Below are positions 5,403-35,997 of a DNA stretch of 35,997 bases, piece after piece. The stretch is from UHGV virus genome UHGV-0350163. One strand, written 5' to 3'. The position numbers and the translations under genes are program-made. This DNA is from a virus. The first letter of the stretch is position 1. Each line of letters starts with the position of its first letter. The notes beneath the pieces are model-generated. The model did not search any database, was not told where the DNA came from, and saw nothing but the letters and a program-made list of their open reading frames with translations.

Positions 5403-6610
5403 TTCTCCCAGACCTTAACAATGGCGACCTCTTTTTTCTTTTTGCCCCTGCGGTGATGGCGTTTCTTCTCGCGCGGGAAGGCGTCAGGTATCCACACGCC
5501 GTCCTCCTTAAAGCGAAGCCGGGTTGTCTGCCCGTTCCGGCCTCCGCTGAACTCACGCCCCATCAGGAAAAAGATGGCATCAATGCCGTGGAGTTCGCTG
5601 ACAATCCGCACCCGCTGGCCGGGCTGCCACAGAACACCATCTGCCGTGCGATGACCTGCAACCAGTGCGACGATATCCAGCCCCGACAGGCGGGCATCAC
5701 TCATCATTTTTTTTGCGCGCCAGCTCACCTGCTCCAGATTGCTGGTGTCGCCCTGGGTGATAATCTGCGGGCGGTAATAATCCACGGTGGGGTCGGTGGC
5801 CACGGCTTTCATGTTATGAATGCCTGTCTGACCACTGTCCGTATTACCGCTGTCCTGCCCGGATAATGTGCGCACGCTGCCGTCCTCGTTCCAGATATCC
5901 AGCGGCACCACGGCCACCTGTTTCTTGCTGTCTGCGCGGCGGGCGTGGCTCTGGGCCAGCACCGTCAGTTCGGAGAAACAGCCGTTAATGGATCGGGTAT
6001 CGTCCAGCTCCATCACGTTGTTCCCGGTGCCGTTCAGCTTCAGAATCAGCGTATCCACCGGCGTGGTGGTGTAGTCAGGGCCACCCACAACCAGCGTCCC
6101 GTCAGGCTCAAACCACGGCCATAAGCCGCGACCGGCGGCAGCTTTGGCCAGTGCATCCCACGCACGCATCCCCGGCTCAATAACAACTTTGTCATTACGT
6201 GACACACCGGACGCCTGTATACGGATGCGCTGTATCCCCAGTGGTCTGACTATCCTGTCGATGACCTCGTCCAGCGTCAGCTGGTTGGCGCTGAACACCG
6301 GCGCGGCACAGTCCACCAGGATGGCGGCATCATCACGCCCGGACAGGGCCAGCGTGCAGCTCTGACGGGACACACTACGGCGCACGCTGTCTATGCGCCC
6401 ACTGAGCACCGTTTCATCTCCCACCTGCAACCGGATTTGTGCGCCCCGGACGATATCCGCCGGGAACACCTTTTCAGGCAGCCCCAGCTGAAGCTGCCAG
6501 CCGTCGGCAGCTTTCAGGAAATCGCTGTCAATACGATAACTGCTCCAGTCAGAATGCGACCTTCCGGCAATGACCAGGCTAATTTTGTCTTCGTTATTTG
6601 GCGTAGGCAT
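5399..6610 (-). CDS. Tail protein P (Mu gp44-like, late control D family)
   Basis: 403 aa ORF following N-like gene, overlapping by 17 nt. Confidence 0.7.
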   Translation of the reverse strand: MPTPNNEDKISLVIAGRSHSDWSSYRIDSDFLKAADGWQLQLGLPEKVFPADIVRGAQIRLQVGDETVLSGRIDSVRRSVSRQSCTLALSGRDDAAILVDCAAPVFSANQLTLDEVIDRIVRPLGIQRIRIQASGVSRNDKVVIEPGMRAWDALAKAAAGRGLWPWFEPDGTLVVGGPDYTTTPVDTLILKLNGTGNNVMELDDTRSINGCFSELTVLAQSHARRADSKKQVAVVPLDIWNEDGSVRTLSGQDSGNTDSGQTGIHNMKAVATDPTVDYYRPQIITQGDTSNLEQVSWRAKKMMSDARLSGLDIVALVAGHRTADGVLWQPGQRVRIVSELHGIDAIFFLMGREFSGGRNGQTTRLRFKEDGVWIPDAFPREKKRHHRRGKKKKEVAIVKVWEK

Positions 6611-7943
6611 TAATTACCACCCCGGCGGTTATGTTGTTCGGGTCACGTAACTGCGGGTTCAGGCGTTGCAGTTCTGCCGCACGACTGTAATCGCCGTACC
6701 ACTGCCACGCCAGCAACAGCAGACAGCTGTCCGCCTGCACCTGTTTCTGCGTCAGCGGTGGGCGGCGTGACAGAACCAGCAGGCCGACATCCTGCACGGA
6801 TGCCGCCACGTTTTTCATGCTCTGAATGATTTCCGGGTACATCAGCCCCAGCGGTGATGCGGTTTCGGTTATCCGTTCGCGTTCGCCTTCATAGCGTTCA
6901 CGGAACAGCGTGATGGCAGCCTGTAAGCGGGTGCGCACATCCCCGACCAGTCGCCCGATATCCGCCGGTATAAGCTGTTCTGACTGCGCATCATCAACCA
7001 GTATCGCCATTGCAACACTGGCCAGTTCAGATGCGGCCTGTGTTGCGTAAACTGCTTTCACATCCTGCACATCGTCTGGCGAGGCATCCGCAGGAAGTAC
7101 CACCTCCGGTACTTTATCGCCACTGACCAGGGCAACAGGCAGCGCAACAAATTCATCCATATCAGTGATGACCTTATTCCAGCAGTTCATCACTGTCGCA
7201 GAACTGGCGACGGTCGTCTCTCCTGCCAACCCGGTCCGGGTGGCAGAATCAACACGTTGCAGAACCGGCACCGGTTGCCCGACATCTGATGTGTGGATTT
7301 CCAGCACCTCTGCCAGTTCATTGATAAATTTTCCGGGTTCGCCTGCCAGTGACACGATATTATCGACAGTGGAGACAAAATCACTTTTGAACGACAGCAG
7401 GGTATTCACCAGTGTGGCACGCACTGTCTGGGCTTTTTTAATCATGCTGTTAACGGTATTTAAAGGTGCAGTAACGGCATCAAAAAAATCACTTAACCGC
7501 GCCTGTAAAGTGTCCAGTTCATCAAACAACTGTTGCGCGAACAGCTCCGGTAACGGGGTGCTGAACAACGCGCTACCGGTGCGGTTTTCCAGAAAACTCA
7601 TGTCAATGGTGCAGCTGTCCGGGCTTTCTGCGTCATGGCGGATGCTGTAGCCGGTCACAATCACCGACGGCACAGAGCCATAAACCGGATGAATCAGTTC
7701 ACCATCGCCGCCTTCATCCAGGGCGGCGGTCAGTTTCCCGAGTTTATATTCATAGTCATCGCCCCACAGGAACGCCGTCATGCGGAACGGTCGCGCCTTG
7801 CGTCCGAGGTCGTGCAAATCCGCCCCGTCAACAAACGGGTATTCATAGACCGCATGGTCGCGGCTGATTTGTTCGTCAGTATTCAGCACCTCAAACTGCA
7901 CGCCACGAAAGGAAGCGTTTTGCAGGTTTTCAGCCCAGCCCAT
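6594..7943 (-). CDS. DNA circularisation protein N-like (Mu gp43-like)
   Basis: 449 aa; N-terminus MGWAENLQNASFRGVQFEV resembles the Mu N family N-terminal signature (from memory); directly downstream of the tape measure gene. Confidence 0.75.
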   Translation of the reverse strand: MGWAENLQNASFRGVQFEVLNTDEQISRDHAVYEYPFVDGADLHDLGRKARPFRMTAFLWGDDYEYKLGKLTAALDEGGDGELIHPVYGSVPSVIVTGYSIRHDAESPDSCTIDMSFLENRTGSALFSTPLPELFAQQLFDELDTLQARLSDFFDAVTAPLNTVNSMIKKAQTVRATLVNTLLSFKSDFVSTVDNIVSLAGEPGKFINELAEVLEIHTSDVGQPVPVLQRVDSATRTGLAGETTVASSATVMNCWNKVITDMDEFVALPVALVSGDKVPEVVLPADASPDDVQDVKAVYATQAASELASVAMAILVDDAQSEQLIPADIGRLVGDVRTRLQAAITLFRERYEGERERITETASPLGLMYPEIIQSMKNVAASVQDVGLLVLSRRPPLTQKQVQADSCLLLLAWQWYGDYSRAAELQRLNPQLRDPNNITAGVVINAYAK

Positions 7944-10216
7944 CAGTAAGTTCCTCCCGTACCTCTGTTACCGTCCTGAAGGTTGTATTTGTTCACTGCC
8001 TCCGCCACGACCTGACCATCGAGCACCAGTTGTGTGGTGAAATTAATGGGGCTGGCAGGTGGCCCCCAGTGCGTGAGGTATTCCGGCTGGGTGATGCGTC
8101 CGGGTTGTGTTGATGCCGGTTCAGGCTTTGTGTTTCCTGCGGCTTTGTTAACCTGCGCCGGTGATGGCAGGGCATCAGCTGCGGCTTTTTTCCTGTCTTC
8201 CTCCCAGCGCCTCAACCATTCTTCGTTTTCGGTGGAATAGCCTTCCCCAAACTGCCACCATGGCTGGTATTTTTTGCGGGCGGCGTCGATTTCTTCCTGG
8301 GTGTATCGGGCGCGGATGCGTTTCCAGCGTTCTTCGCTTCCTTCGACGGCGGCGTCTTCTTCCGGGCTGGTTGCGGTGGCCAGTGCCGTAACAGTGCCAC
8401 CTAAAGAAAGCAGGCCACCGGCAATACCGGGGAATTTAAATCCTTTGCCTTTTTTGACCGTGTTTTCAATTACATCACCAACAACCTCGCCAGCCTTGCC
8501 ACCGGGTTTACCCCCGGTCAGGATTTTGATCCCGGCCCATGTCAGAGCCGCTGCGGTCATCGCTTCAATTGCGGTCGTAGCACCCACCACTGCCGTGGTC
8601 AGCCCCGGAAACTTTTCACCCGCCCAGCTTATGGCATCGGCCACAGTACCGGACGCATCAGCCAGCTTTTTCACGCTGTCCATTTGTGAAAATTCAAGCG
8701 TGTTTTTAGCCTGTTCGGTTTTAAAATCATTGAGGCCGGATATGAATCTGAAATCAACATCCCCCGCGCGCTGGCCTTCCGGCAGGGTACGTTGCTGATT
8801 AATCGCGTCTTCAACCTTCTTACGGTATTCCGGGTTGTTACGGTAGGCTAACAACGCCATCAACGCCTGACGGTCTGCAACCAGTTTCCCGACACCAAAG
8901 CCTTCAAGGAGTTTTGCCATCGAATCGTAAACAGCCGTCTGTTCACCTTTATCCCGGGCAGATGACAGTTTCTTTTGCAACTCCTGATAGCGTTTATCGT
9001 TGGCAACGATTTTATCTATCAGGCTGGAAAGCGCGTCTATCGGATCCAGTCCATGCTTGCGCGCTTCAGTCAGCGTACCTGAAAAATCAATCCCTTTACC
9101 GTTGTAATCAATGCTCTTTGCCGCAGTTTCAATATCATGGCTGGTCAGTTTAGCCAGCAGGTTAACCACGTTATTCCCTGCTTCATCACTGCTACCAGCC
9201 GTGATCGCGGCGGCTTCATTCAGCGCAAGAATCTTGACGAAATCATCCTTGCCTTTCATTCCCGCAGCTGACGCAGAACCCATTTGTTGGGATAACCAGC
9301 GGGCCATATCGTTCAGTTCAAAGCTGCCTTCTTTTCCTGCCGCAATCGCCATATTCAGGACAGTGGAAATATCTTCATCCTGGAATCCAAAGGTCTTTTT
9401 GCCCTTAAGCATCACATTAGCCAGGTCTGTCGCTGATGCACCAGAAGCCGTGGCGTATTTCATCAGTTCAGGTAACCACTTGCTGGCTGTGTCAAATGAA
9501 ATACCGCCATCTTTCAGCAGGGCATCCAGTGTTTCGGCTGCATCCTCTTTTGTGCCGCCACCATAGGTCACCGCGTTACGGATGCTGCTTTTCATCTGCT
9601 CAAGACCGGCTTTGCGCCCCTCCAGCCCGCCATCACTGAAGGCGGTATTGGCCATCATTGCCAGCTGGCGTTCGTAGCTCATCTGCTTTTTGACCGGCTG
9701 CGCCATAATGGCAGCACCTGCCGCGATACCACCACCTATTGTCACGGCATTCCCGCCAAATGCAGCCGCACGCGCAAAACGCCCCCGTTCGGGGATAACA
9801 GGCGTTTTCGCCATCTTCATCTGAGCCTGAGTAACGCCATCCAGTTCACGCTTGAGTGCCCGGGCTTTTTCCCGGGTGGCCTGCATGGCGCGCTCCTGCT
9901 CCTGCGCAGATTCAAAACCGGCACGGGCCAGACGGTTATAGCTGGCAACCGTCTGATAAATTTCACGCCGGATTTCACGTTCTGCACGAATACCGAGCGT
10001 TTCCCGGGCACGGGCGGCACGCTGTATCTCTTTTGCCGCCTTTTTCGTGCTGTTAACGCTTTCCTGCCCGGTACGCGTCTGCTCTGCGCCTGCCTTCCGG
10101 GTTGCCTTTGTTACACCTTCGGTGGCTTTGATAACCTGTTTTTGTCCCTTTTCCAGAACCTGCGAGGCTTCGTCCTTCGCAGTCAGGGTCATGCCAACTT
10201 TGAAATTACCGGCCAT
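7943..10216 (-). CDS. Tail tape measure protein
   Basis: 757 aa, Ala/Gly/Lys-rich with long coiled-coil-like N-terminal part; between chaperone and N as in myophage tail modules. RBS AAGG upstream of ATG at 10216. Confidence 0.85.
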   Translation of the reverse strand: MAGNFKVGMTLTAKDEASQVLEKGQKQVIKATEGVTKATRKAGAEQTRTGQESVNSTKKAAKEIQRAARARETLGIRAEREIRREIYQTVASYNRLARAGFESAQEQERAMQATREKARALKRELDGVTQAQMKMAKTPVIPERGRFARAAAFGGNAVTIGGGIAAGAAIMAQPVKKQMSYERQLAMMANTAFSDGGLEGRKAGLEQMKSSIRNAVTYGGGTKEDAAETLDALLKDGGISFDTASKWLPELMKYATASGASATDLANVMLKGKKTFGFQDEDISTVLNMAIAAGKEGSFELNDMARWLSQQMGSASAAGMKGKDDFVKILALNEAAAITAGSSDEAGNNVVNLLAKLTSHDIETAAKSIDYNGKGIDFSGTLTEARKHGLDPIDALSSLIDKIVANDKRYQELQKKLSSARDKGEQTAVYDSMAKLLEGFGVGKLVADRQALMALLAYRNNPEYRKKVEDAINQQRTLPEGQRAGDVDFRFISGLNDFKTEQAKNTLEFSQMDSVKKLADASGTVADAISWAGEKFPGLTTAVVGATTAIEAMTAAALTWAGIKILTGGKPGGKAGEVVGDVIENTVKKGKGFKFPGIAGGLLSLGGTVTALATATSPEEDAAVEGSEERWKRIRARYTQEEIDAARKKYQPWWQFGEGYSTENEEWLRRWEEDRKKAAADALPSPAQVNKAAGNTKPEPASTQPGRITQPEYLTHWGPPASPINFTTQLVLDGQVVAEAVNKYNLQDGNRGTGGTY

Positions 10217-10378
10217 TTTTCTGTTTACCTTTTCTGCGTTTCTTTCTGAGAGATTTAAATGACTGGCGGGTGGTCTGTGAGGTGTCCTTTCTTCCTGAGC
10301 CGCCGCCGTTCAGCCTGTCAACGGCGGCAAGCCAGCCGTCCAGCTCGGGACGGCTCATGGTCATGATTTGTTCTTCGG

Positions 10379-10762
10379 TTATTCCGTAGCGCCCGAGGAT
10401 AAGGACTGCGAGCCGGAGTCCGGCGAGCCGGGATTCCCGCCGTTCCGCTTTACCTTCAGGACGTTGCGTGATGCCAGCAGAATATTAAAATCTTCCGGCG
10501 TCATGTTGTCGTGCAACAGCTCCGCCGTCAGTTCTTCCTGCGGAATATCCCCCAGACGGACCAGCGTTGCCGCCATCACCGCACAGCGGTAGTAATAATC
10601 CGCCGCGAAGCCGTCCACTGTCTGAAAGCGTTCTTCAGTTTCTTCCAGTGCCTGCCCGTTATCACGCATGACCGGCAGACGCAGCTCAAAGTTTTTATGA
10701 ATGGTGCCGTTAAAAACCAGGCCATCGGACAGTTCGCCGGTCTGTGTAGCGATAATCGTCAT
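10379..10762 (-). CDS. Tail assembly chaperone (Mu gp41-like)
   Basis: 127 aa acidic ORF between tube and tape measure genes. Confidence 0.6.
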   Translation of the reverse strand: MTIIATQTGELSDGLVFNGTIHKNFELRLPVMRDNGQALEETEERFQTVDGFAADYYYRCAVMAATLVRLGDIPQEELTAELLHDNMTPEDFNILLASRNVLKVKRNGGNPGSPDSGSQSLSSGATE

Positions 10763-11133
10763 CCTTCCACCTTCCTGAGTGCAGCCATTTTGATATCAAT
10801 TTTCGCTTCATTATCGACGGTGTATTTCTCACCCACTTCGGTTGTGAAGCAGTCCAGATAAGAGGTGCGTTTGCCGCTGTTACTGAGCGGGTACAGCGAG
10901 ATTTTCACACCTTCCAGATTTTCCCAGTCCGGCTCGTTGGTATCAGGAATAACCGCCGAAACGGACAGTTCGTAGGTGGCAATGCCACGGGCAAAGCCTT
11001 TAGCCCTGCCGGTTTTGTTCATGGTCTTGACCAGCTTTCGCCCGGTGTTGATCTGAACATCAAGGTCGGTGATCTCGATTTCCTGGCTGTCAATTTCCAA
11101 CACAATCGAGCCGATATATTCTTTCAGGGACAT
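10759..11133 (-). CDS. Tail tube protein (Mu M-like)
   Basis: 124 aa ORF immediately after the sheath gene. Confidence 0.75.
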   Translation of the reverse strand: MSLKEYIGSIVLEIDSQEIEITDLDVQINTGRKLVKTMNKTGRAKGFARGIATYELSVSAVIPDTNEPDWENLEGVKISLYPLSNSGKRTSYLDCFTTEVGEKYTVDNEAKIDIKMAALRKVEG

Positions 11134-24859: not shown

Positions 24860-25147
24860 TTAAAGAGAAGCGAGTTTTAATGGTGGCTTATAACATGCCC
24901 GCGCCAGCAGGTTAGCTCTTTCCACGGCATTACGCATTTCCCGTTCTGCGTCAATCATTCTGTTTACGGCTGACAGCACTTCATCATGATTCGTTACTGA
25001 TTCCGGGCTTTGGGCCTGTTTCGCCAGGTAACTGGATAAATTGCACATTTCAGCATGTCGGCGACGGGCTGCATCCCGGGCCTTGTCTGAAAATGCGGTA
25101 TATTCACCGAGTACTGCATAGTCGATATCGGTGTCAGAACGCATCAT
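24860..25147 (-). CDS. Hypothetical protein (first gene after the activator)
   Basis: 95 aa ORF; no recognisable motif. Confidence 0.45.
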   Translation of the reverse strand: MMRSDTDIDYAVLGEYTAFSDKARDAARRRHAEMCNLSSYLAKQAQSPESVTNHDEVLSAVNRMIDAEREMRNAVERANLLARACYKPPLKLASL

Positions 25148-25174
25148 TTCGTGTCTCCTTTTTTCTGAGGCCCA

Positions 25175-25642
25175 TTAATCAAAAAGCCCCACCTGGGTGG
25201 GGCTTTTCAGCGAAGTCTGTTTTTGTCGTCGGTGTATCAGCTGCCATGCGTACCGGTCTGAAATCCCGTAACGGGGACAGAGTAGTGCCAGCGCCTGCCG
25301 GTGTGAGCATCCGTCTTTTACATGCTGCTGTAAATCTGCCATAAAACGGGTGTTACGCAGGGCACGTAACGCATGATCGCAACGGGGAATGTAAAACGGC
25401 GCACCGCCAAGAAAGCGGATCAGTTTGTTGATTTCGTCTTCGGTCAGCACATCATGTAACAGGGCATGGACACCGCCGGTGCGTTCGGCGTGTGCGCCGG
25501 TTTTACCGCTTAACGTCACGCCACCAAAAGAACGGATTAACCGGGTCAGGGCGGGGAAGCCAATCACGCCAATCAGTTGCTGCACGGAATCGGGCAGCAG
25601 TGCCTGCGCATCGCGAAGATCTGTTTCACTGAAGGTCTGCAT
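25175..25642 (-). CDS. Mor/C-family transcriptional activator
   Basis: 155 aa; contains GGAPFYIP motif and C-terminal HTH-like segment (YGISDRYAWQLI) resembling Mu Mor/C (from memory). Only one such homologue seen. Confidence 0.75.
   Translation of the reverse strand: MQTFSETDLRDAQALLPDSVQQLIGVIGFPALTRLIRSFGGVTLSGKTGAHAERTGGVHALLHDVLTEDEINKLIRFLGGAPFYIPRCDHALRALRNTRFMADLQQHVKDGCSHRQALALLCPRYGISDRYAWQLIHRRQKQTSLKSPTQVGLFD
25181..25207 (-). terminator. A-tract / GC-rich hairpin / T-tract overlapping the 3' end of the Mor/C-like gene
   Basis: AAAAAGCCCCACC-TG-GGTGGGGCTTTT read from sequence; the minus-strand transcript would end within a few nt of the stop codon. Confidence 0.5.
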
Positions 25643-25700
25643 GATGGCGTCTCCGGTAGTAACTTACTGTTATTATAGCCATACATGATCGCCTGTACAG
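25643..25700 (-). promoter_or_regulatory. Candidate promoter for the Mor/C-like gene (perfect -10 TATAAT at 25673-25678 on minus strand)
   Basis: TATAAT about 30 nt upstream of the ATG, GGAG RBS 9 nt upstream of ATG; lies immediately downstream of the terminator at 25701-25730. No convincing -35. Confidence 0.35.
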
Positions 25701-25730
25701 ACCACAAAAAAGCCCCTACATGGCAGGGGC
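25701..25730 (-). terminator. Intrinsic terminator after the AT-rich moron (stem GCCCCT/AGGGGC, 7-nt loop, then TTTTTTGTGG on minus strand)
   Basis: Read directly from sequence. Confidence 0.65.
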
Positions 25731-25740
25731 GGCTATTAAG

Positions 25741-26244
25741 TTACTCTGGAATCTTGATGTTACAGGCTTTGATAAATTTATTAACAGCGGTTGTTGAACC
25801 TGTCGGTGTTACATTAAACGATGCGCCTCGTTCTTCACTCGGTTCTTTTACACCAGCTAAAACACGTTTTTGGGCTTTTCGAAGATAAGATAACAACTCT
25901 TTGATTTTTTGTTCGTCCTCTATTTTATAAATATACATTTTTTCATTTCGTGCAGCGAGTACCCCTGTGGTCTTTACTGCTGGAAATTCGTCTATCCTAA
26001 ATATTAAATCTTTTGATGAACCGAATAACGCAATGTTAACTTTATCTGTTTCTTTTGTAATACCAGCGAATAGTGAGTCATTCGAACAGTCTAAAGCAAT
26101 CCCAAAATCCATTGTTCCAATACCCACCATCATGGCTGTTTGTTGATCATCAAAAGCATCTTTTTGTACCCATGTGTGCCATTCAGCAACGGCAGGAAAA
26201 GACAAAATGAACGCTACTAAAAGAAAATACCGTTTTTTAATCAT
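25741..26244 (-). CDS. Secreted protein of unknown function (AT-rich moron)
   Basis: 167 aa with N-terminal signal peptide (MIKKRYFLLVAFILSFPAVA); strong SD AAGGAGGAG; ATG overlaps gemA stop (ATGA); coding sequence is markedly AT-rich. Confidence 0.7.
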   Translation of the reverse strand: MIKKRYFLLVAFILSFPAVAEWHTWVQKDAFDDQQTAMMVGIGTMDFGIALDCSNDSLFAGITKETDKVNIALFGSSKDLIFRIDEFPAVKTTGVLAARNEKMYIYKIEDEQKIKELLSYLRKAQKRVLAGVKEPSEERGASFNVTPTGSTTAVNKFIKACNIKIPE

Positions 26245-26639
26245 TTACTCCTCCTTCTTGAATCTTTAACCAGCGCCACCATCACCCCGAAAAGCTGTTC
26301 ATCCGTCAGCCATTCGATCACATGTTGCTTATACATGTGAGATGCCAGTCCTTCCGCATACCCCCAGGAACGACCGGCATCAGCCAGCAACGCTTCAATT
26401 TTGGATAATACCGATTTTCTGCTCATTGCAACACGGGGGCGGCGACCTTTACCGGCGGGTGCCTTGCGCGGGAATCCCTGTTCGTGCATGTATTCCCGGA
26501 TGATGCGCAGTTCATTAAGATTGCAGCGTGTGGTGCTGGTTTTACCGGTCAGGCGGGCCAGCGTCTGGCGATAAAGGGCATCATCCCACCCCAGATACGC
26601 CTGACCGGCTTTAATGGCCCCGATCATCTTTTTCAGCAT
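26241..26639 (-). CDS. gemA: GemA-like protein (Mu gp16-like)
   Basis: ORF track gives 26241..26738; start placed at internal MLKKMIGAIKAG; position upstream of the activator as in Mu. Confidence 0.6.
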   Translation of the reverse strand: MLKKMIGAIKAGQAYLGWDDALYRQTLARLTGKTSTTRCNLNELRIIREYMHEQGFPRKAPAGKGRRPRVAMSRKSVLSKIEALLADAGRSWGYAEGLASHMYKQHVIEWLTDEQLFGVMVALVKDSRRRSK

Positions 26640-26925
26640 GTTTGTTATCCTCAAAACGTACGGTAAAACGTGAAACGCCAATCCCTGACAAGAACGCGGC
26701 GGCACGATCAAGAGACAGCCACGTCTTGTAATCGCCACGGCGTTCCTGTAGAAAATAGGACACCCCAGCGCGGCGATTCACAGCGAAGAGGTGATACACA
26801 CCACCGAACCGCTGCACGACGAACTCATCCACGCCACCGCTTTCAGCCTGTTGCCTGAAAGCTGCCATTCCGATTTGTTCAATCTTCATAATGACCAAAA
26901 CACTACTTTTGGCAGACCAAAACAC
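26611..26925 (-). CDS. Hypothetical protein (start uncertain)
   Basis: ORF with GTG start at 26925 or ATG at 26889; 3' end overlaps gemA start. Confidence 0.3.
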   Translation of the reverse strand: MFWSAKSSVLVIMKIEQIGMAAFRQQAESGGVDEFVVQRFGGVYHLFAVNRRAGVSYFLQERRGDYKTWLSLDRAAAFLSGIGVSRFTVRFEDNKHAEKDDRGH

Positions 26926-26938
26926 ATGTTTTGGTCTG
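26913..26938. promoter_or_regulatory. Perfect 12-bp inverted repeat CAGACCAAAACA-CA-TGTTTTGGTCTG with a third half-site GACCAAAACA at 26893-26902; candidate operator
   Basis: Read directly; sits in the intergenic gap upstream of the gemA/moron unit. Confidence 0.45.
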
Positions 26939-26956
26939 CGTTTGATTACTGTTCAA

Positions 26957-27175
26957 TCAACCCGCGTAATCGGGGCCGTGTTCCCATCTGGCATCGAGTA
27001 TTTCCGTTCCATCTGTCCGGCATGGGTTATCAAGTGCCATTTTTCCGCACTCCCCGTACTCGACATCGACAAAATCAGCAATATCATTGTCCGTTGCGTT
27101 ATCAGGAACGTCGATTTCAACCGTTACGGTGATAGTTTTCATCAGGTTGTTACTCCGTGATTCAGAAAATTTCAT
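26957..27175 (-). CDS. Small acidic protein of unknown function
   Basis: 72 aa (or about 61 aa from MKTITVTV), rich in Asp/Glu; 8 nt downstream of the secreted-protein gene. Confidence 0.45.
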   Translation of the reverse strand: MKFSESRSNNLMKTITVTVEIDVPDNATDNDIADFVDVEYGECGKMALDNPCRTDGTEILDARWEHGPDYAG

Positions 27176-27183
27176 GCCGGAAC

Positions 27184-27594
27184 TCAGTATGTGAAATAGA
27201 CAGTTGCCACGCCGTTATAGTGATCAAACGACACGGCGTTTACCTCATAACTGGCCGGGAGCTTCGAACCAAGAACGTATCCGGGCCACGTTTTCCATGG
27301 AATTTCTCTGCTCTCACTGTCGCCATATACCGTACATCCCAGTGAGCCTACAGCTTCATAAGAACGCTTACCGCACGTTATGAACCCCAGATTTAGCTTA
27401 CTGCCCTTAACAGAAATCGGGAGAGCACTGGCTGATGCGTTAGCAGCGTCCTGCTCCTGTTGGCTTGCGATATTCGCAGAGTTCGCAGCAGCTGCGGCAG
27501 CCGTAGTCGCAGCGGCAGATGCCACAATAACTGCTGAAGCCTGTGCCTGTTGGGTAACGGTCAGCAATGCCGCCACAAAAACCATTTTCTTCAC
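27184..27594 (-). CDS. Secreted protein with Ala-rich low-complexity linker
   Basis: 136 aa, GTG start preceded by AGGAGGT; signal peptide MKKMVFVAALLTVTQQAQA, then Ala/Ser/Thr-rich segment and a ~75 aa C-terminal domain. Confidence 0.6.
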   Translation of the reverse strand: MKKMVFVAALLTVTQQAQASAVIVASAAATTAAAAAANSANIASQQEQDAANASASALPISVKGSKLNLGFITCGKRSYEAVGSLGCTVYGDSESREIPWKTWPGYVLGSKLPASYEVNAVSFDHYNGVATVYFTY

Positions 27595-27609
27595 CTGGCA
27601 CCTCCTTTA

Positions 27610-27783
27610 CATACCGTGATTTTTCCTGCGGTTTTGCGCCGCGCTGGGCTTTTTGCAACAGCTGTGCAACATCACCCCGCAACACCCCGTCAACCTCACT
27701 CGTCTGTTACTAATCCTCAACCATCGCCAGACCCCAACACCGTTTCTGCGAGCTAACAGAATTTTTGCCTTACGGTTTTTCAT
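27610..27783 (-). CDS. Small basic protein, paralogue B (58 aa), not in ORF track
   Basis: Hand-translated: MKNRKAKILLARRNGVGVWRWLRISNRRVRLTGCCGVMLHSCCKKPSAAQNRRKNHGM. ATG overlaps the stop of paralogue A (ATGA). Confidence 0.4.
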
Positions 27784-27956
27784 CGTACTGCGTACCCTTT
27801 CTTCCGCCTGTTCTGTGACGCAGTAGGCTTACGCTTTGCGGCAAAAGCCACCTGACCAAATGGATGGAGTACCGCTATCTTATGGTTGCTAATAACCAGC
27901 TCCACCACACGCACAGGCCGCTGTAAAAGAAGTCGTTTTGCTTTACGGTTTTTCAT
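27783..27956 (-). CDS. Small basic protein, paralogue A (58 aa), not in ORF track
   Basis: Hand-translated: MKNRKAKRLLLQRPVRVVELVISNHKIAVLHPFGQVAFAAKRKPTASQNRRKKGYAVR. AGGAG 9 nt upstream of ATG. First 24 nt nearly identical to paralogue B. Confidence 0.4.
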
Positions 27957-31506: not shown

Positions 31507-31525
31507 TCAGTGAATTAACATTTCT
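31507..31525. repeat. 19-bp perfect direct repeat, copy 2 (encodes the last codons and stop of B)
   Basis: Identical to 31134-31152. Confidence 0.9.
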
Positions 31526-32400
31526 GCGAATTTATCTATGGCCTGCACACTGACCGGCGCATCGCTGATATCGCAAATCCGGTACACACCGCGCGCCAGT
31601 TTGAACAGGCGGCGGGTATTACCCAGCGAGCGCGCGTAAAGCGCCTCGCTGATTTCCGGTTCTGCTGCTTCCGGCATCAGCCCGGTGGCTATCTGGTTAA
31701 AATCTTCCTGCGCCAGCGTGTCGCCCAGGTTAAGCGCCAGCGCCACGCGGCTGTATAACTGCGCAAATTCACCACGACGCCCCTTGAGATTAATCAGAAG
31801 ACGAGGCATACCCGCCAGGACAACCCCGATACCCGCTTTATCATGCAGACGGCGCAGAACCTCCAGTGCGCGATAGGGGAGCAGTTCAGCTTCGTCCACC
31901 ATCAGCAGACGACCGGAATCACGCAGTTCGCGCACACAGGCATCAATCAGTTCGTGAATGTTGCCGCGAACCTTTACCCCCAGCTGGCGGCACAACTCCT
32001 CAAGCAGTGTCCTGGCTGTATAGCCCGGGTCAGCCTCAATCAGGACCGCATCCCGGTTTCTGGCTGCGTATTCACGCAGAATCATTGTTTTGCCAAGACC
32101 AGCTGCGCCATACAGTACACAGATTTCACATTCCAGGTGAGCGTAGGCCAGCACCTCCAGTCCTTTGGCAGCCATACCGGTGGCAACAAATTTCGCTTTA
32201 ATACGGCGGCTGTTTTCCTTTTCCCGCTCACGGGTCACAAAGGCAGAAATGCGTTCTTCAATATCAGCCATATCGCCCTGATATTTACCCTGTAAATACT
32301 GGTTGATAACGGCGCTGCTACGACCAATAGCACGGGCGACGTGGGTCTGCGTATAGCCGCGACGGGCCATTACGTCATTTAATTGCGTAATTAAACTCAT
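31507..32400 (-). CDS. B: Transposition ATPase B (MuB-like, AAA+)
   Basis: 297 aa; N-terminal HTH-like region, Walker A (GAAGLGKT) and Walker B-like (LLMVDEAE); directly downstream of the transposase. Confidence 0.9.
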   Translation of the reverse strand: MSLITQLNDVMARRGYTQTHVARAIGRSSAVINQYLQGKYQGDMADIEERISAFVTREREKENSRRIKAKFVATGMAAKGLEVLAYAHLECEICVLYGAAGLGKTMILREYAARNRDAVLIEADPGYTARTLLEELCRQLGVKVRGNIHELIDACVRELRDSGRLLMVDEAELLPYRALEVLRRLHDKAGIGVVLAGMPRLLINLKGRRGEFAQLYSRVALALNLGDTLAQEDFNQIATGLMPEAAEPEISEALYARSLGNTRRLFKLARGVYRICDISDAPVSVQAIDKFAEMLIH

Positions 32401-32418: not shown

Positions 32419-34461
32419 TTAACGGTTGTTTGTGCCGTTTTTCTTTAAATTGCGCTCGCGTTCAGATGCGAATAAATAAAGTTCTTCTTTTTCCTTTTTC
32501 TCCGGGCGCTCCAGTCCATATCCCAGATTAAAGTCTGGCTTCTGCGTAATAGCCGGGGTAAGCTCGCGTTTAGCCTCTTCGATTTTCTGCGTGGCCCGTG
32601 CAATGCGGCCCCTGACGCGTTTCTCCAGTTTTTGTTCGATAACTGGTTTAGCGAAGGCATCAACCTTGTTACCGTTCCAGATGGCATCGCAGATATAAGA
32701 GCCATCAGCCCGCCGGACAATGACGCTGTTTGCATCATGAATATCGTAACTGACCCTGACTTCATTCCCGTGCTCTGCGGCCAGATCATATGAGTAATAA
32801 ATATTGTTGAATAACTGAATTTCCCCGCGAAATGTTTTGCGCGTCACTTCCGGTCTGAACATTTCATGCAGTTCTTCCGGCGACAGGAAATCAATTTCAA
32901 CATTCTGCTCTTTTATCAGTTTCCGGCGATACGCTGCCGGGCTGTAATATTCGCCATCCTCTTTGCGGGGAAGGCTGCTGTGTGGCCGGTTGTTATAGCG
33001 TCTGACCTCCAGCTCTATGGCCGCCATCAGTTGCTCAAAGGTGGGGATTTCATCCCTCGCCTTAACCTGCCGTTTTGTCAGTTCTTTCCCTTTGTGGGTG
33101 GCCTTAATGGCCGACTGCATAATCCGTTGCTGCATCATTACGGTTTCCTTGTCTGCATCCTTTGCGCAGTACGTCTGGAAACTCAGTGCCACGTCTTTGG
33201 GTATTCCTTTGTTTGCCCGTTCTATTACCCCGCGCCCCTGCGGGTTACCCGGTATCCCCGTGTGATGCTCCACACCCAGCCGGGGCAGAATCCCGGTAAT
33301 ATCGGCATCAAGCACCCGGTTTTTTTCGCCGCCCCCGTTATCGGAATAATAAATCAGCGGTATCCCGTGCTGTGCCATGCCGTAACGCAACGCATCAGCA
33401 ACGGCTATCACGTTTTCCGACAGGGACAGTGACCAGCCCACAACAAAGCGCTGCCCCGCATCCATAACCAGCGTCACTTCTGGCCGGAAAATATTGCCGG
33501 TCAGGGGGTTAAACGCGGTCATTTTCATACAGTGACCATCCCCGACCCATACCGCATTAACCGGTAATGATGTCCACTCGCGCCGCACAAAGGGATTGAG
33601 CGAACGCCAGGCTGAACCTGTGGAGCGGAAACGCTCCTTAACAATCACCGGGACGCTGCTTAACACTCGTCTTACTGCGTGAACTGAAGGCAGTGCCGCC
33701 AGCATTCCCGCATCATTCGCGTGTTTCTCATGCCACCAGGCTGAAAACTCGCGATAAGCGTATTCAACGGTCGGGCGCTTCCATGAGCGATAGAACATAA
33801 AGAAATCGCTCAGCCACCAGACCTGCTCCCACGGAGTTCCCTTATGATGACCGGGAGCCAGTAACGCCAGTAACTGATTGGCATCACCGCGCGCCATCAC
33901 CCAGCTGGAGTACCAGCTATCCAGGCTGCCGGTGCTGACACCGGTTCGCTTTCCCTGACGTGCATTTGCAGTATTCGCTGCTTCGATAATGCGGTCAGGT
34001 AACGCCCCCATGCGCACACCATCAACGATGTGCTTTAACGCGGCCTTCCTGGTCATTCCGGCGTATTCACGCAGTTTATGCACTTCAGTAGCCAGCAATA
34101 TCCGCGCATCAGCAATGGCCTTTTGCTTGTCGGTCAGTGCCTGGACTTCGCGTAATGCCAGTTCCGGGCATTTGACCATCACTTCCAGTTCATCGCGAAC
34201 GGCGACGTTTTTAACTGCCTTCTGCTCAACCACGGCGGGCAGTTGTGCATCTTCCAGGACCTGATGAGTCAGGCGCTTACGTAAAACTTTCTGCGCTTCA
34301 GCGGGCAGGCTGTCGATGTGATACTCGAATGCTTTTGTGCCTTCACGCTTGCGCTTCCATTCCGGGTGCGTCTCTGTGATCCGATTGAGCGTCCATCGCA
34401 CCCCCTGAACTGTACCGGGCAAACGAGGAAGACCGGCCAGCTCATTGGCTGAATAAAACAT
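32419..34461 (-). CDS. A: DDE transposase A (MuA-like)
   Basis: 680 aa; N-terminus (ANELAGLPRLPGTVQGVRW...IDSLPAEAQ) and the central DDE core (WVGDGH...DNGGG) resemble MuA (from memory); ATG overlaps ner stop (TAATG). Confidence 0.9.
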   Translation of the reverse strand: MFYSANELAGLPRLPGTVQGVRWTLNRITETHPEWKRKREGTKAFEYHIDSLPAEAQKVLRKRLTHQVLEDAQLPAVVEQKAVKNVAVRDELEVMVKCPELALREVQALTDKQKAIADARILLATEVHKLREYAGMTRKAALKHIVDGVRMGALPDRIIEAANTANARQGKRTGVSTGSLDSWYSSWVMARGDANQLLALLAPGHHKGTPWEQVWWLSDFFMFYRSWKRPTVEYAYREFSAWWHEKHANDAGMLAALPSVHAVRRVLSSVPVIVKERFRSTGSAWRSLNPFVRREWTSLPVNAVWVGDGHCMKMTAFNPLTGNIFRPEVTLVMDAGQRFVVGWSLSLSENVIAVADALRYGMAQHGIPLIYYSDNGGGEKNRVLDADITGILPRLGVEHHTGIPGNPQGRGVIERANKGIPKDVALSFQTYCAKDADKETVMMQQRIMQSAIKATHKGKELTKRQVKARDEIPTFEQLMAAIELEVRRYNNRPHSSLPRKEDGEYYSPAAYRRKLIKEQNVEIDFLSPEELHEMFRPEVTRKTFRGEIQLFNNIYYSYDLAAEHGNEVRVSYDIHDANSVIVRRADGSYICDAIWNGNKVDAFAKPVIEQKLEKRVRGRIARATQKIEEAKRELTPAITQKPDFNLGYGLERPEKKEKEELYLFASERERNLKKNGTNNR

Positions 34462-34879: not shown

Positions 34880-35527
34880 ATGACCAGAAATGATGATGCT
34901 TTTTCTTTTGTCGACCGGGGAAAAGAAAGTTTCAGAGAGCGTTTAGTAAAGCTGATAGGTAATCGCAGTGTCAGAACTGCTGCGAGTGATTGGGGAATCC
35001 CCCCTTCAACCTTAAACAACTACATTCATAAAGGAACTGAGCCTTCTTTTAAAATAGCTTGCCTTATCTCAGATAAAGAGCAAGTGAGCTTAAATTGGCT
35101 CGCTTACGGTAAGGAACCCACCACCAAAGAAGGTTCTCTATCAAATCAAACAGCGCAGCCTTCTCCCGATATTACAAACGAGCTAGTTAACGAGTTATTG
35201 AAAAGAGCGTCCACAGAAGTTAAGGAGCAACTGATAAGTGCAATATGCGATATGGGCATTAAAGGAATCTTGGAACGCCTACAGCAACCAACCAGGCAAA
35301 CTAAGCAGACCGACAGCGACCTGGACGAACAAGAGACTGCCATCAGAAGCCTAAACATCAGGGAATCGCTTAAAGACGCTATTTGCATGGCATTGGCTGG
35401 TAATGAAGAAACTGATAAAGAGATTTTGCGACGCATCGAATCTCGTGCACGGACTGGGTCGCCAGGTGGTGAGACCATTGCCACGCTGGAGCAAGAAACG
35501 AAACCTGTAAGCAAAAAACCAGCATGA
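34880..35527 (+). CDS. Prophage repressor, CI-like with XRE-type HTH
   Basis: 215 aa; N-terminal HTH (SVRTAASDWGIPPSTLNNYIHKG...LNWLAYG); only plus-strand gene, divergent from ner. No S24 peptidase-like C-terminal domain recognised. Confidence 0.75.
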   Translation: MTRNDDAFSFVDRGKESFRERLVKLIGNRSVRTAASDWGIPPSTLNNYIHKGTEPSFKIACLISDKEQVSLNWLAYGKEPTTKEGSLSNQTAQPSPDITNELVNELLKRASTEVKEQLISAICDMGIKGILERLQQPTRQTKQTDSDLDEQETAIRSLNIRESLKDAICMALAGNEETDKEILRRIESRARTGSPGGETIATLEQETKPVSKKPA

Positions 35528-35706
35528 ACGCCTACTACTTGGTAGGCGTATGCTGCCAACTAACTAGCGACATCCAACAAAACCAATACCGACAACTGAT
35601 AAGAAAGGAATAAATCAGACAAGATTAGAACGGGCTTTAGAATCTTTTAAACGAGTTTTAAAATCTTTTAAAAGGAGATCGCTTTCTTACACCACCAGAT
35701 CAAAAG

Positions 35707-35841
35707 CGCCCAGAATAAAGCGTAAAAAAAGGCACTTTTGGTCATTTCTCACAAATCCGCCCAGAATCACACTAAATCACCATACCCCGCGCCACACAAG
35801 GCTTGCAGGTTCTACCAGGCTGCACGAACTCCGCCCAGAAT
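35707..35841 (+). repeat. Three direct copies of CGCCCAGAAT (35707-35716, 35758-35767, 35832-35841); candidate left-end transposase binding sites
   Basis: Read directly; spacing 51 and 74 bp; same decamer occurs inverted at the other end (148-157). Confidence 0.55.
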
Positions 35842-35847
35842 TGATCA

Positions 35848-35997
35848 CTACCCCACATTTTGTGGTGCATTTTGTTGCTGTGCCAACAGTTCTGCAGCCA
35901 GTGCGACGGTTTTTTGCGGGGCAAACGGGCGTTCGCAACGGCTGCAACGTTGTAGATGGAACGTCGCGCGGGTATAGAGATCGGCTTTATTGGTGAC
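35848..35997 (-). CDS. Possible 3' end of a host gene interrupted by the prophage (partial)
   Basis: Minus-strand frame is open from the window edge to TAG at 35848-35850 (50 codons); no motif recognised; weak evidence. Confidence 0.2.

Follow-up and report, generated by a model that had tools for sequence, protein, structure and literature searches.

How expression of gemA is controlled in transposable phages is poorly understood. Among the closest described systems, the mom mRNA of phage Mu carries a translation-inhibiting stem-loop that is relieved by Com, attenuators of the trp type are built on a choice between 1:2/3:4 and 2:3 pairings, and phage operators of tandem dyads are familiar from the lambda type and the Arc/Mnt type. 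Mor/C sites are 16-bp imperfect dyads at -43.5, with a recognisable -10 and no -35, and they are common to several promoters (PMC2582627). Where among these does the conspicuous palindrome upstream of gemA in a Mu-like prophage belong? We tentatively propose that it belongs to a structure in the mRNA, leader or intercistronic, that acts in cis to gate translation or stability of the unit formed by gemA and the 92-aa ORF that precedes it, and if the sense RNA is what acts, translational gating would be the most likely mechanism.

The window, by which we mean the whole 35,997-nt stretch of DNA that was analysed (UHGV virus genome UHGV-0350163), is a Mu-like prophage with its genes on the minus strand (Table 1). 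Beyond transposase B, toward lower coordinates, come DUF3164 and DUF2786 genes and then a run of small cargo ORFs. At 27607-27783 and 27780-27956 (minus strand) lie two 58-aa ORFs in tandem that overlap each other; both start MKNRKAK and belong to phrog_1380, a family of unknown function, and a phrog_1380-family ORF lies directly upstream of the element in other prophages. The cargo includes a 136-aa signal-peptide gene (27184-27594), a widely travelling moron whose 3' part (27165-27400) matches E. coli plasmids at 87-91% and Escherichia phage Av-05 at 79%. The earlier note had placed the palindrome in a short intergenic gap ahead of the gemA/moron unit, and that is where it lies: 67 bp separate the stop codon of a 72-aa cargo ORF (26959-26957) from the ATG of the 92-aa ORF, both on the minus strand, and the element heads a block consisting of the 92-aa ORF, gemA and the moron. 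The 3' end of the 92-aa ORF overlaps the start of gemA by 32 nt and gemA in turn overlaps the moron, so that control exerted here could set the output of the whole compact unit. The unit is closed by a strong, conserved intrinsic terminator directly followed by a sigma-70-like promoter for mor; related prophages, whether or not they have the moron, keep the promoter region unchanged and the terminator to within one or two bases. With this terminator before it and a promoter-like site of its own, mor, in contrast to its counterpart in Mu, appears to have a transcript separate from that of the early operon. A separate perfect palindrome with 12-bp arms (25182-25207, AAAAGCCCCACC-tg-GGTGGGGCTTTT), located where mor ends, looks like a bidirectional terminator.

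Table 1. Coordinates of the element, its parts and the neighbouring genes in the window
Feature	Coordinates	Strand	Details
Repressor gene	34880-35527	+	with a ner-like gene
Transposase A gene	32419-34461	-	
Transposase B gene	31507-32400	-	
A/U-rich 5' flank, semi-conserved	26940-26956	-	sense ..GAACAGUAAUCAAAC; between the upstream ORF stop and H1
Distal hairpin H1	26912-26939	-	sense GCAGACCAAAACA-tg-TGTTTTGGTCTGC; holds hexamers 1 and 2
Alternative fold B (predicted)	26891-26936	-	GACCAAAACAU paired with GUGUUUUGGUC
40-nt core	26895-26934	-	four alternating hexamers
Hexamer 1	26934-26929	-	sense CCAAAA
Hexamer 2	26922-26917	-	sense UUUUGG
Hexamer 3	26912-26907	-	sense CCAAAA
Hexamer 4	26900-26895	-	sense UUUUGG
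Proximal unit H2	26893-26912	-	CCAAAA-guagug-UUUUGG, weak 5-6-bp hairpin; carries the third GACCAAAACA
92-aa ORF	26611-26889	-	phrog_7844, no function assigned; ATG 26889-26887
gemA	26241-26642	-	Pfam PF06252; overlaps the 92-aa ORF upstream and the moron downstream
Secreted-protein moron	25741-26244	-	
Intrinsic terminator, conserved	25712-25730	-	GCCCCTGCCATGTAGGGGC then T6; closes the 92-aa/gemA/moron unit
Sigma-70-like promoter for mor	25699-25672	-	TGTACA-16-TATAAT, right after the terminator
mor	25175-25642	-	holins and endolysin beyond

The 92-aa protein contains no Pfam domain and is listed in PHROGs as of unknown function only; it has an eL38-like alpha/beta fold, neither helix-turn-helix nor ribbon-helix-helix. 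RefSeq and PHROG entries often give it as 104 aa (26611-26925 in the window, minus strand; 3212-3526 in L002), with a GTG or ATG of the hairpin loop taken as its start. We rejected an ORF starting in the loop: the loop GTG/ATG is not conserved in frame, and the diverged homologues all begin MK(I/T/N)E. The 104-aa form is therefore probably an annotation artefact, a practical point for those annotating such prophages, since the loop start codon is often taken, probably wrongly, as that of the protein.

The palindrome had been described in the earlier note as CAGACCAAAACA-CA-TGTTTTGGTCTG at 26913-26938, with a third copy of the half-site GACCAAAACA at 26893-26902. Both are present as described, and the inverted repeat extends one base further on each side, the inverted-repeat scan giving perfect 13-bp arms, GCAGACCAAAACA and TGTTTTGGTCTGC (26912-26924 and 26927-26939), around a 2-nt spacer; it is the longest perfect inverted repeat of the window. 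The judgement that it is too regular for chance is sound, as our own estimate for perfect 13-bp arms with a spacer of 0-8 nt (36000 x 9 / 4^13 = 0.005) leads us to expect about 0.005 such palindromes in 36 kb. Further copies of the half-site in the window, for which a search had been proposed, do not exceed chance: the perfect GACCAAAACA 10-mer occurs three times in 36 kb, always at the element, and when one mismatch is allowed six copies are found against 3.0 expected, so that the three lying elsewhere are at chance level. Of the 20 CCAAAA/TTTTGG hexamers in the window, four fall within these 40 bp, and they are laid out as CCAAAA-N6-TTTTGG-N4-CCAAAA-N6-TTTTGG (26895-26934), a 6-6-6-4-6-6-6 register with a fixed centre-to-centre spacing of 12/10/12. 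The proximal copy also has a weak dyad symmetry of its own, CCAAAAcactacTTTTGG (26895-26912), so the region can be read as two tandem 22-bp units; it also forms a larger palindrome, with 20-nt arms that are 80% complementary, centred at 26913-26916. H2 ends 5 nt from the ATG of the 92-aa ORF.

Because the four segments are mutually complementary, the sense RNA can be drawn in two exclusive folds. Over 116 nt its minimum free energy is -37.6 kcal/mol (z = -3.6), a value matched by none of 200 shuffled sequences. In predicted fold A, segments 1 and 2 form a hairpin of 12-13 bp and segments 3 and 4 a second one, the H1 hairpin being drawn as a 12-bp stem capped by an AUGU tetraloop. In predicted fold B, an 11-bp outer helix and a 3x3 internal loop lead to an apical 6-bp helix, UUUUGG-ucug-CCAAAA. 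The two are about 1-2 kcal/mol apart in most variants of the window lineage, and the RNAalifold consensus corresponds to the long hairpin, apical 2:3 and basal 1:4. In both folds the 3' arm is predicted to end 3-5 nt before the AUG, over the position expected of a Shine-Dalgarno sequence, and no recognisable Shine-Dalgarno precedes the 92-aa gene in the window lineage. Diverged lineages have weak predicted structures, -10 to -16 kcal/mol for 74 nt, in which hairpin 3:4 is not conserved and a GGA motif lies within the 3' arm.

How do these sequences change? Among close relatives (22 unique sequences) not one of the 24 hexamer columns varies, while the H1 loop and top-pair columns vary, as do the first four of the six H2 loop columns and about 14% of the columns in adjacent coding sequence. 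Across 14 lineage representatives, all in the 6-6-6-4-6-6-6 register, each of the four hexamers keeps its CCA or TGG triplet with little or no change, whatever the spacers do; in the diverged lineages hexamer 4 reads GAAUGG or GAUUGG and overlaps the GGA Shine-Dalgarno-like motif. The first and last bases of the first N6 spacer can pair in 10 of the 14 lineages, by five different pair types, which extends the stem to 7 bp with a tetraloop. Several arms change jointly: CCAAAA/UUUUGG has become CCAAAU/AUUUGG in L066, L067 and L090, and one C-G pair has become A-U, a double change recorded for L003 and for EPEC E2348/69. The 2:3 pairing UUUUGG/CCAAAA has become AAUUGG/CCAUUU in L087, with the same two positions altered in L048 (AAUUGC/CCAUUU), so that the apical helix of fold B carries compensatory AA/UU changes in both. 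Further E. coli variants, read on the coding strand, show one A-to-G and three C-to-U single stem changes, each of which gives a G·U pair, and in the close relatives breaks in sense-strand pairing are confined to the outermost and innermost pairs. Seven single stem changes in all give G·U on the sense strand and three on the antisense strand only (two of these three at terminal pairs), an excess that is not statistically significant. In the 23-sequence alignment pairing holds in 88-94% of cells, and none of 500 column shuffles reaches the observed covariation score; in the 14 lineage representatives the paired fraction is 68%, with 19 cells altered on both sides where 13.6 are expected (13 of 500 shuffles) and 15 where 10.2 are expected (10 of 500), a pattern that the symmetry of a DNA site could also produce. 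The covariation is suggestive and not decisive: it is clear on the full alignment, and modest and marginal on independent lineage representatives. Pair counts back both the 1:2 and the 2:3 helix, and the 3:4 helix, that is the H2 pairing, is specific to the window lineage. Complementarity up to a 4-nt loop, joint changes of the arms and G·U pairs that are mostly possible on the sense strand only appear, taken together, to fit a nucleic-acid hairpin better than the half-sites of a protein.

Symmetry and hexamer conservation are, on the other hand, what one would look for in a DNA operator, in which a phage or host protein, dimeric or tetrameric and perhaps the product of the adjacent gene, would bind the two neighbouring CCAAAA-N6-TTTTGG dyads cooperatively and so repress or block transcription into the gemA module. 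We consider such an operator fairly unlikely, although it makes good sense of four copies of one hexamer at invariable intervals in a 22-bp direct repeat, of a hexamer sequence kept across lineages while the spacers vary freely, and of A/T tracts phased at about 10.7 bp; lying 22 bp apart, the dyads would occupy the same face of the helix. The Mu gem operon is reportedly constitutive in lysogens (Paolozzi & Ghelardini 1992, cited in PMC3820752), and expression of that kind would imply a promoter of its own. Of the four flank classes of the window lineage, three have a promoter-like site (score 9 of 12) ahead of the element, its -10-like hexamer ending about 10-14 nt upstream in L002 and L025 and about 35 nt upstream in L004. 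Against the operator, the window's own flank has no such site, with no sigma-70-like promoter found on the minus strand near 26890-26960, and none occurs at a conserved position across 15 lineages. There is a single site per genome, the perfect 13-bp arms exceed normal half-sites, and the outer GCAGA/TCTGC is missing from the second unit. The complementarity also reaches the tetraloop, with arms that co-vary, and the fold of the adjacent 92-aa protein is not that of a helix-turn-helix or ribbon-helix-helix regulator. An informal comparison by eye with the motifs for CRP, LexA, Fis, IHF, DnaA, FadR/GntR and sigma-54 revealed no fit to these host sites.

The earlier note had seen here a regulatory site for a dimeric protein, possibly controlling a middle-type promoter. 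What stands is a cis element that is conserved, beyond chance and at the head of the unit, and that is presumably regulatory; the dimeric-regulator reading is not supported, given the missing sigma-70-like promoter nearby, the one copy per phage and arms that co-vary up to a 4-nt loop, and neither is the Mor/C reading, given a motif that is unique in the phage and lacks a conserved promoter. The only candidate -10, CATTAT (4 of 6 matches), would put the centre of H1 at about -44.5, and it overlaps the ATG of the 92-aa ORF, while the dyad is a perfect one of 28 bp and not an imperfect one of 16 bp. With no other copies in the phage, a Mor/C regulon site was rejected.

Is the element a property of Mu-like operons or of the gene that follows it? 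The surrounding kilobase is matched in 91 of 5426 complete E. coli genomes, and the element together with the gene start occurs in 58 of the 5426, at a median of one and a maximum of two places per genome, which disposes of a dispersed repeat of the REP/BIME, ERIC or MITE kind. Every copy examined sits upstream of the 92-aa gene, and the motif, which the earlier note had suggested seeking in related phages, is present at the homologous position in all the related prophages examined. A tblastn search of a phage collection found no deposited phage genome encoding the 92-aa protein, and a scan of genome contigs returned one locus. Profile searches recovered diverged homologues, 58-76% identical, from Intestinirhabdus, Leminorella, Erwinia and metagenomic contigs, and three of the diverged homologues lie just upstream of a terminase gene in non-Mu phages. 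The 40 nt preceding the start codon give a gapless alignment in the 6-6-6-4-6-6-6 register for every homologue examined except L089, a 55% identical one from which the element is absent. In Leminorella the upstream ORF runs into the element, its stop codon lying 16 nt ahead of the AUG. With a covariance model, each locus gives a single site and the rest of the window none, the next best match having E = 2.4. Since it is kept upstream of diverged and non-Mu homologues, the element is tied to the 92-aa gene and not to the Mu operon architecture. It has no Rfam match at gathering score, the best being Plastid-psbA-2 with 18.4 bits against 55.8 and E = 1.8, which is noise.

A pattern scan of viral contigs also drew attention to IMGVR_UViG_3300035661_000038, a high-GC contig of 82 kb (L008, L010, L012, L015, L016, L030, L032, L036 and L039) that is unrelated to the prophages. 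It contains at least 17 scattered copies of a 22-bp palindrome, GACCAAAA(A/G)G(C/T)(G/A)C(C/T)TTTTGGTC, which looks like a phage-wide repeated regulatory or structural motif. We rejected it as a relative of the element, as only the core is shared, by coincidence.

The outer edge of the element is a boundary in its own right. Megablast homology among the E. coli prophages stops at 26938-26957 of the window, so that the element marks the junction between variable cargo and a conserved core of the 92-aa ORF, gemA and mor. Upstream of this edge come at least four unrelated flanks, which have in common just a short A/U-rich (A/G)UAA(U/C)CAA-NN before GCAGACC. Could the palindrome then be a by-product of recombination, a cargo-exchange boundary or duplicated remnant with no regulatory role? 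The abrupt end of homology, the several flanks and the resemblance of the two units to a 22-bp tandem duplication all point that way, yet we regard it as highly improbable, because the hexamers stay invariant beside loops and synonymous sites that do vary, the architecture persists at 58-76% protein identity and outside Mu-type surroundings, and compensatory changes are present. An integron attC-like site was likewise rejected: there is one copy, at one cargo border, the remaining cargo ORFs have no equivalent palindromes between them, and the annotation of the corresponding early region in related prophages includes no integrase gene. The left-end region (35700-35860, minus strand) carries three ATTCTGGGCG repeats that are likely transposase binding sites; the element has in common with this region only a chance-level 11-mer, AATGACCAAAA, and was dismissed as a transposase end-binding or internal site.

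A position exactly at the cargo/core junction would also suit an RNA processing or stability determinant, be it a cleavage site for RNase E or RNase III or a protective 5'/3' stem-loop, that separates decay of the gemA-module mRNA from that of the cargo mRNAs. The semi-conserved, single-stranded A/U-rich stretch lies directly 5' of a very stable hairpin, and fold B, with its internal loop and a length of about 20 base-pair equivalents, resembles T7-type RNase III sites. Such a role is nevertheless quite unlikely as a distinct mechanism, given that the element also travels with the gene where there is no Mu-type cargo region and that the stems of the diverged lineages are too weak to protect an RNA end.

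Transcription termination deserves consideration on both strands. On the sense strand a Rho-independent terminator was rejected, as neither hairpin is followed by a U-tract, the stem being followed by CAAAAGUAGUG. On the plus strand, which alone is flagged by the terminator scan, the antisense hairpin has a 12-bp stem with six G-C pairs and a weak tail, GTTTGATTAC; every flank class and several diverged lineages have a U-rich tail there, for example UUUUUAU in L086 and L090. It could serve as an intrinsic terminator or insulator that stops leftward transcription or ends a small antisense RNA over the 92-aa start, and a CATAAT -10-like hexamer at 26887-26892 (+) could start an RNA of about 45 nt. 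We think this very unlikely: upstream of it, from 25000 to 26912, the plus strand has neither a gene nor a promoter-like site, the run of U is broken (G-UUUG-AUUAC), diverged lineages have stems with just two G-C pairs, and the stem substitutions favour pairing on the sense strand. A leader-peptide attenuator was rejected as well; a 13-codon uORF runs from the AUG of the H1 loop to an AUGA, and its start and frame are not conserved, there being none in L003 and a shifted frame in the L006 type.

We return, then, to the mRNA leader that we favour. The element abuts the ATG of the 92-aa ORF, stands on the coding strand and folds better than shuffled controls. From its sequence, conservation and uniqueness, its linkage to one gene, its predicted folds and its substitutions, we infer that RNA is the active form and that translation or stability is what it affects. 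The palindrome would be the most conspicuous part of an RNA element of about 45 nt in the rightward, minus-strand early transcript, forming the leader of the 92-aa ORF at the border between variable cargo and a conserved regulatory core. Its four complementary hexamers would let the RNA fold in two exclusive ways, A and B, and the structure would restrict or gate initiation at the 92-aa ORF and, through the 32-nt overlap, at gemA. A second possibility is that it would act as a processing or stability determinant and uncouple the core-module mRNA from the variable cargo upstream. Several points speak against this reading. The window-lineage gene has no recognisable Shine-Dalgarno, the diverged lineages have weak predicted structures, and a simple on/off translational switch is not evident, because both folds cover the same stretch ahead of the AUG. 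The identical hexamer, at four positions and across lineages, looks like a mark of sequence-specific recognition, for which bistability would account in part and not necessarily in full. One can imagine, as a long shot, that the bistable leader and the 92-aa gene make up a mobile cassette, in which the eL38-like protein or another phage factor binds the CCAAAA/UUUUGG hairpins and so controls its own translation. Were this true, translational coupling would let the cassette determine how much GemA is made at the exit of the early operon, and when, and it would work both in Mu-like early operons and beside the terminase genes of other phages.

What is gained is a concrete, mutable handle, namely a structured leader at the cargo/core border that moves with its gene between phage types, on post-transcriptional control in Mu-like E. 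coli prophages, including that of EPEC E2348/69, where the element falls in NC_011601 2724992-2725091. The element was previously uncatalogued and is of a familiar kind; it overturns nothing known, and the result is a modest one for specialists.

How does the element compare with the described systems? With Mor/C-dependent middle and late promoters of Mu it shares a dyad symmetry near the regulatory genes of a Mu-like phage, but it is a perfect 28-bp palindrome with no convincing -10 at the right distance and an unshared motif, and mor here has a separate promoter-like site (Table 1). Tandem-dyad operators resemble it in having adjacent dyads two helical turns apart, a conserved half-site and variable spacers, whereas here there is no overlapping promoter, only one site, and arms that are complementary up to a tetraloop and co-varying. 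Phage Mu has a GC-rich hairpin of its own, GGCGGTG-ttgcag-CACCGCC, 20 nt upstream of the gemA ATG (NC_000929, 8193-8212; L084, 2694-2713), in a 275-bp gap that also holds a reverse-strand gp15 prediction. Like our element, it is intergenic and closely precedes the gem genes, where the semi-essential early region ends; its sequence is unrelated, however, and it is a single hairpin without repeated hexamers, followed by a strong GGAGG Shine-Dalgarno. Neither the 92-aa gene nor the element was found in Mu 5500-10800, where the covariance model was used for the element, and tblastn of the 92-aa protein gave no match in the phage collection.

Two further parallels are RNA structures. As in trp-type attenuators, segment 2 may pair with segment 1 or segment 3 in nearly isoenergetic folds, but there is no conserved leader peptide and no U-tract after the 3:4 hairpin, and segment 1 also pairs with segment 4, so that both folds close over the same region. 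The mom leader of Mu shares no sequence similarity with the element, which lies in the early and not the late region, has four interchangeable segments and two predicted folds, visibly sequesters no Shine-Dalgarno in the window lineage and has no identified Com-like partner. Like mom, nevertheless, it would place in a Mu-type phage an mRNA stem-loop upstream of or over the start of the gene that it restrains, as a cis element unique to that one gene.
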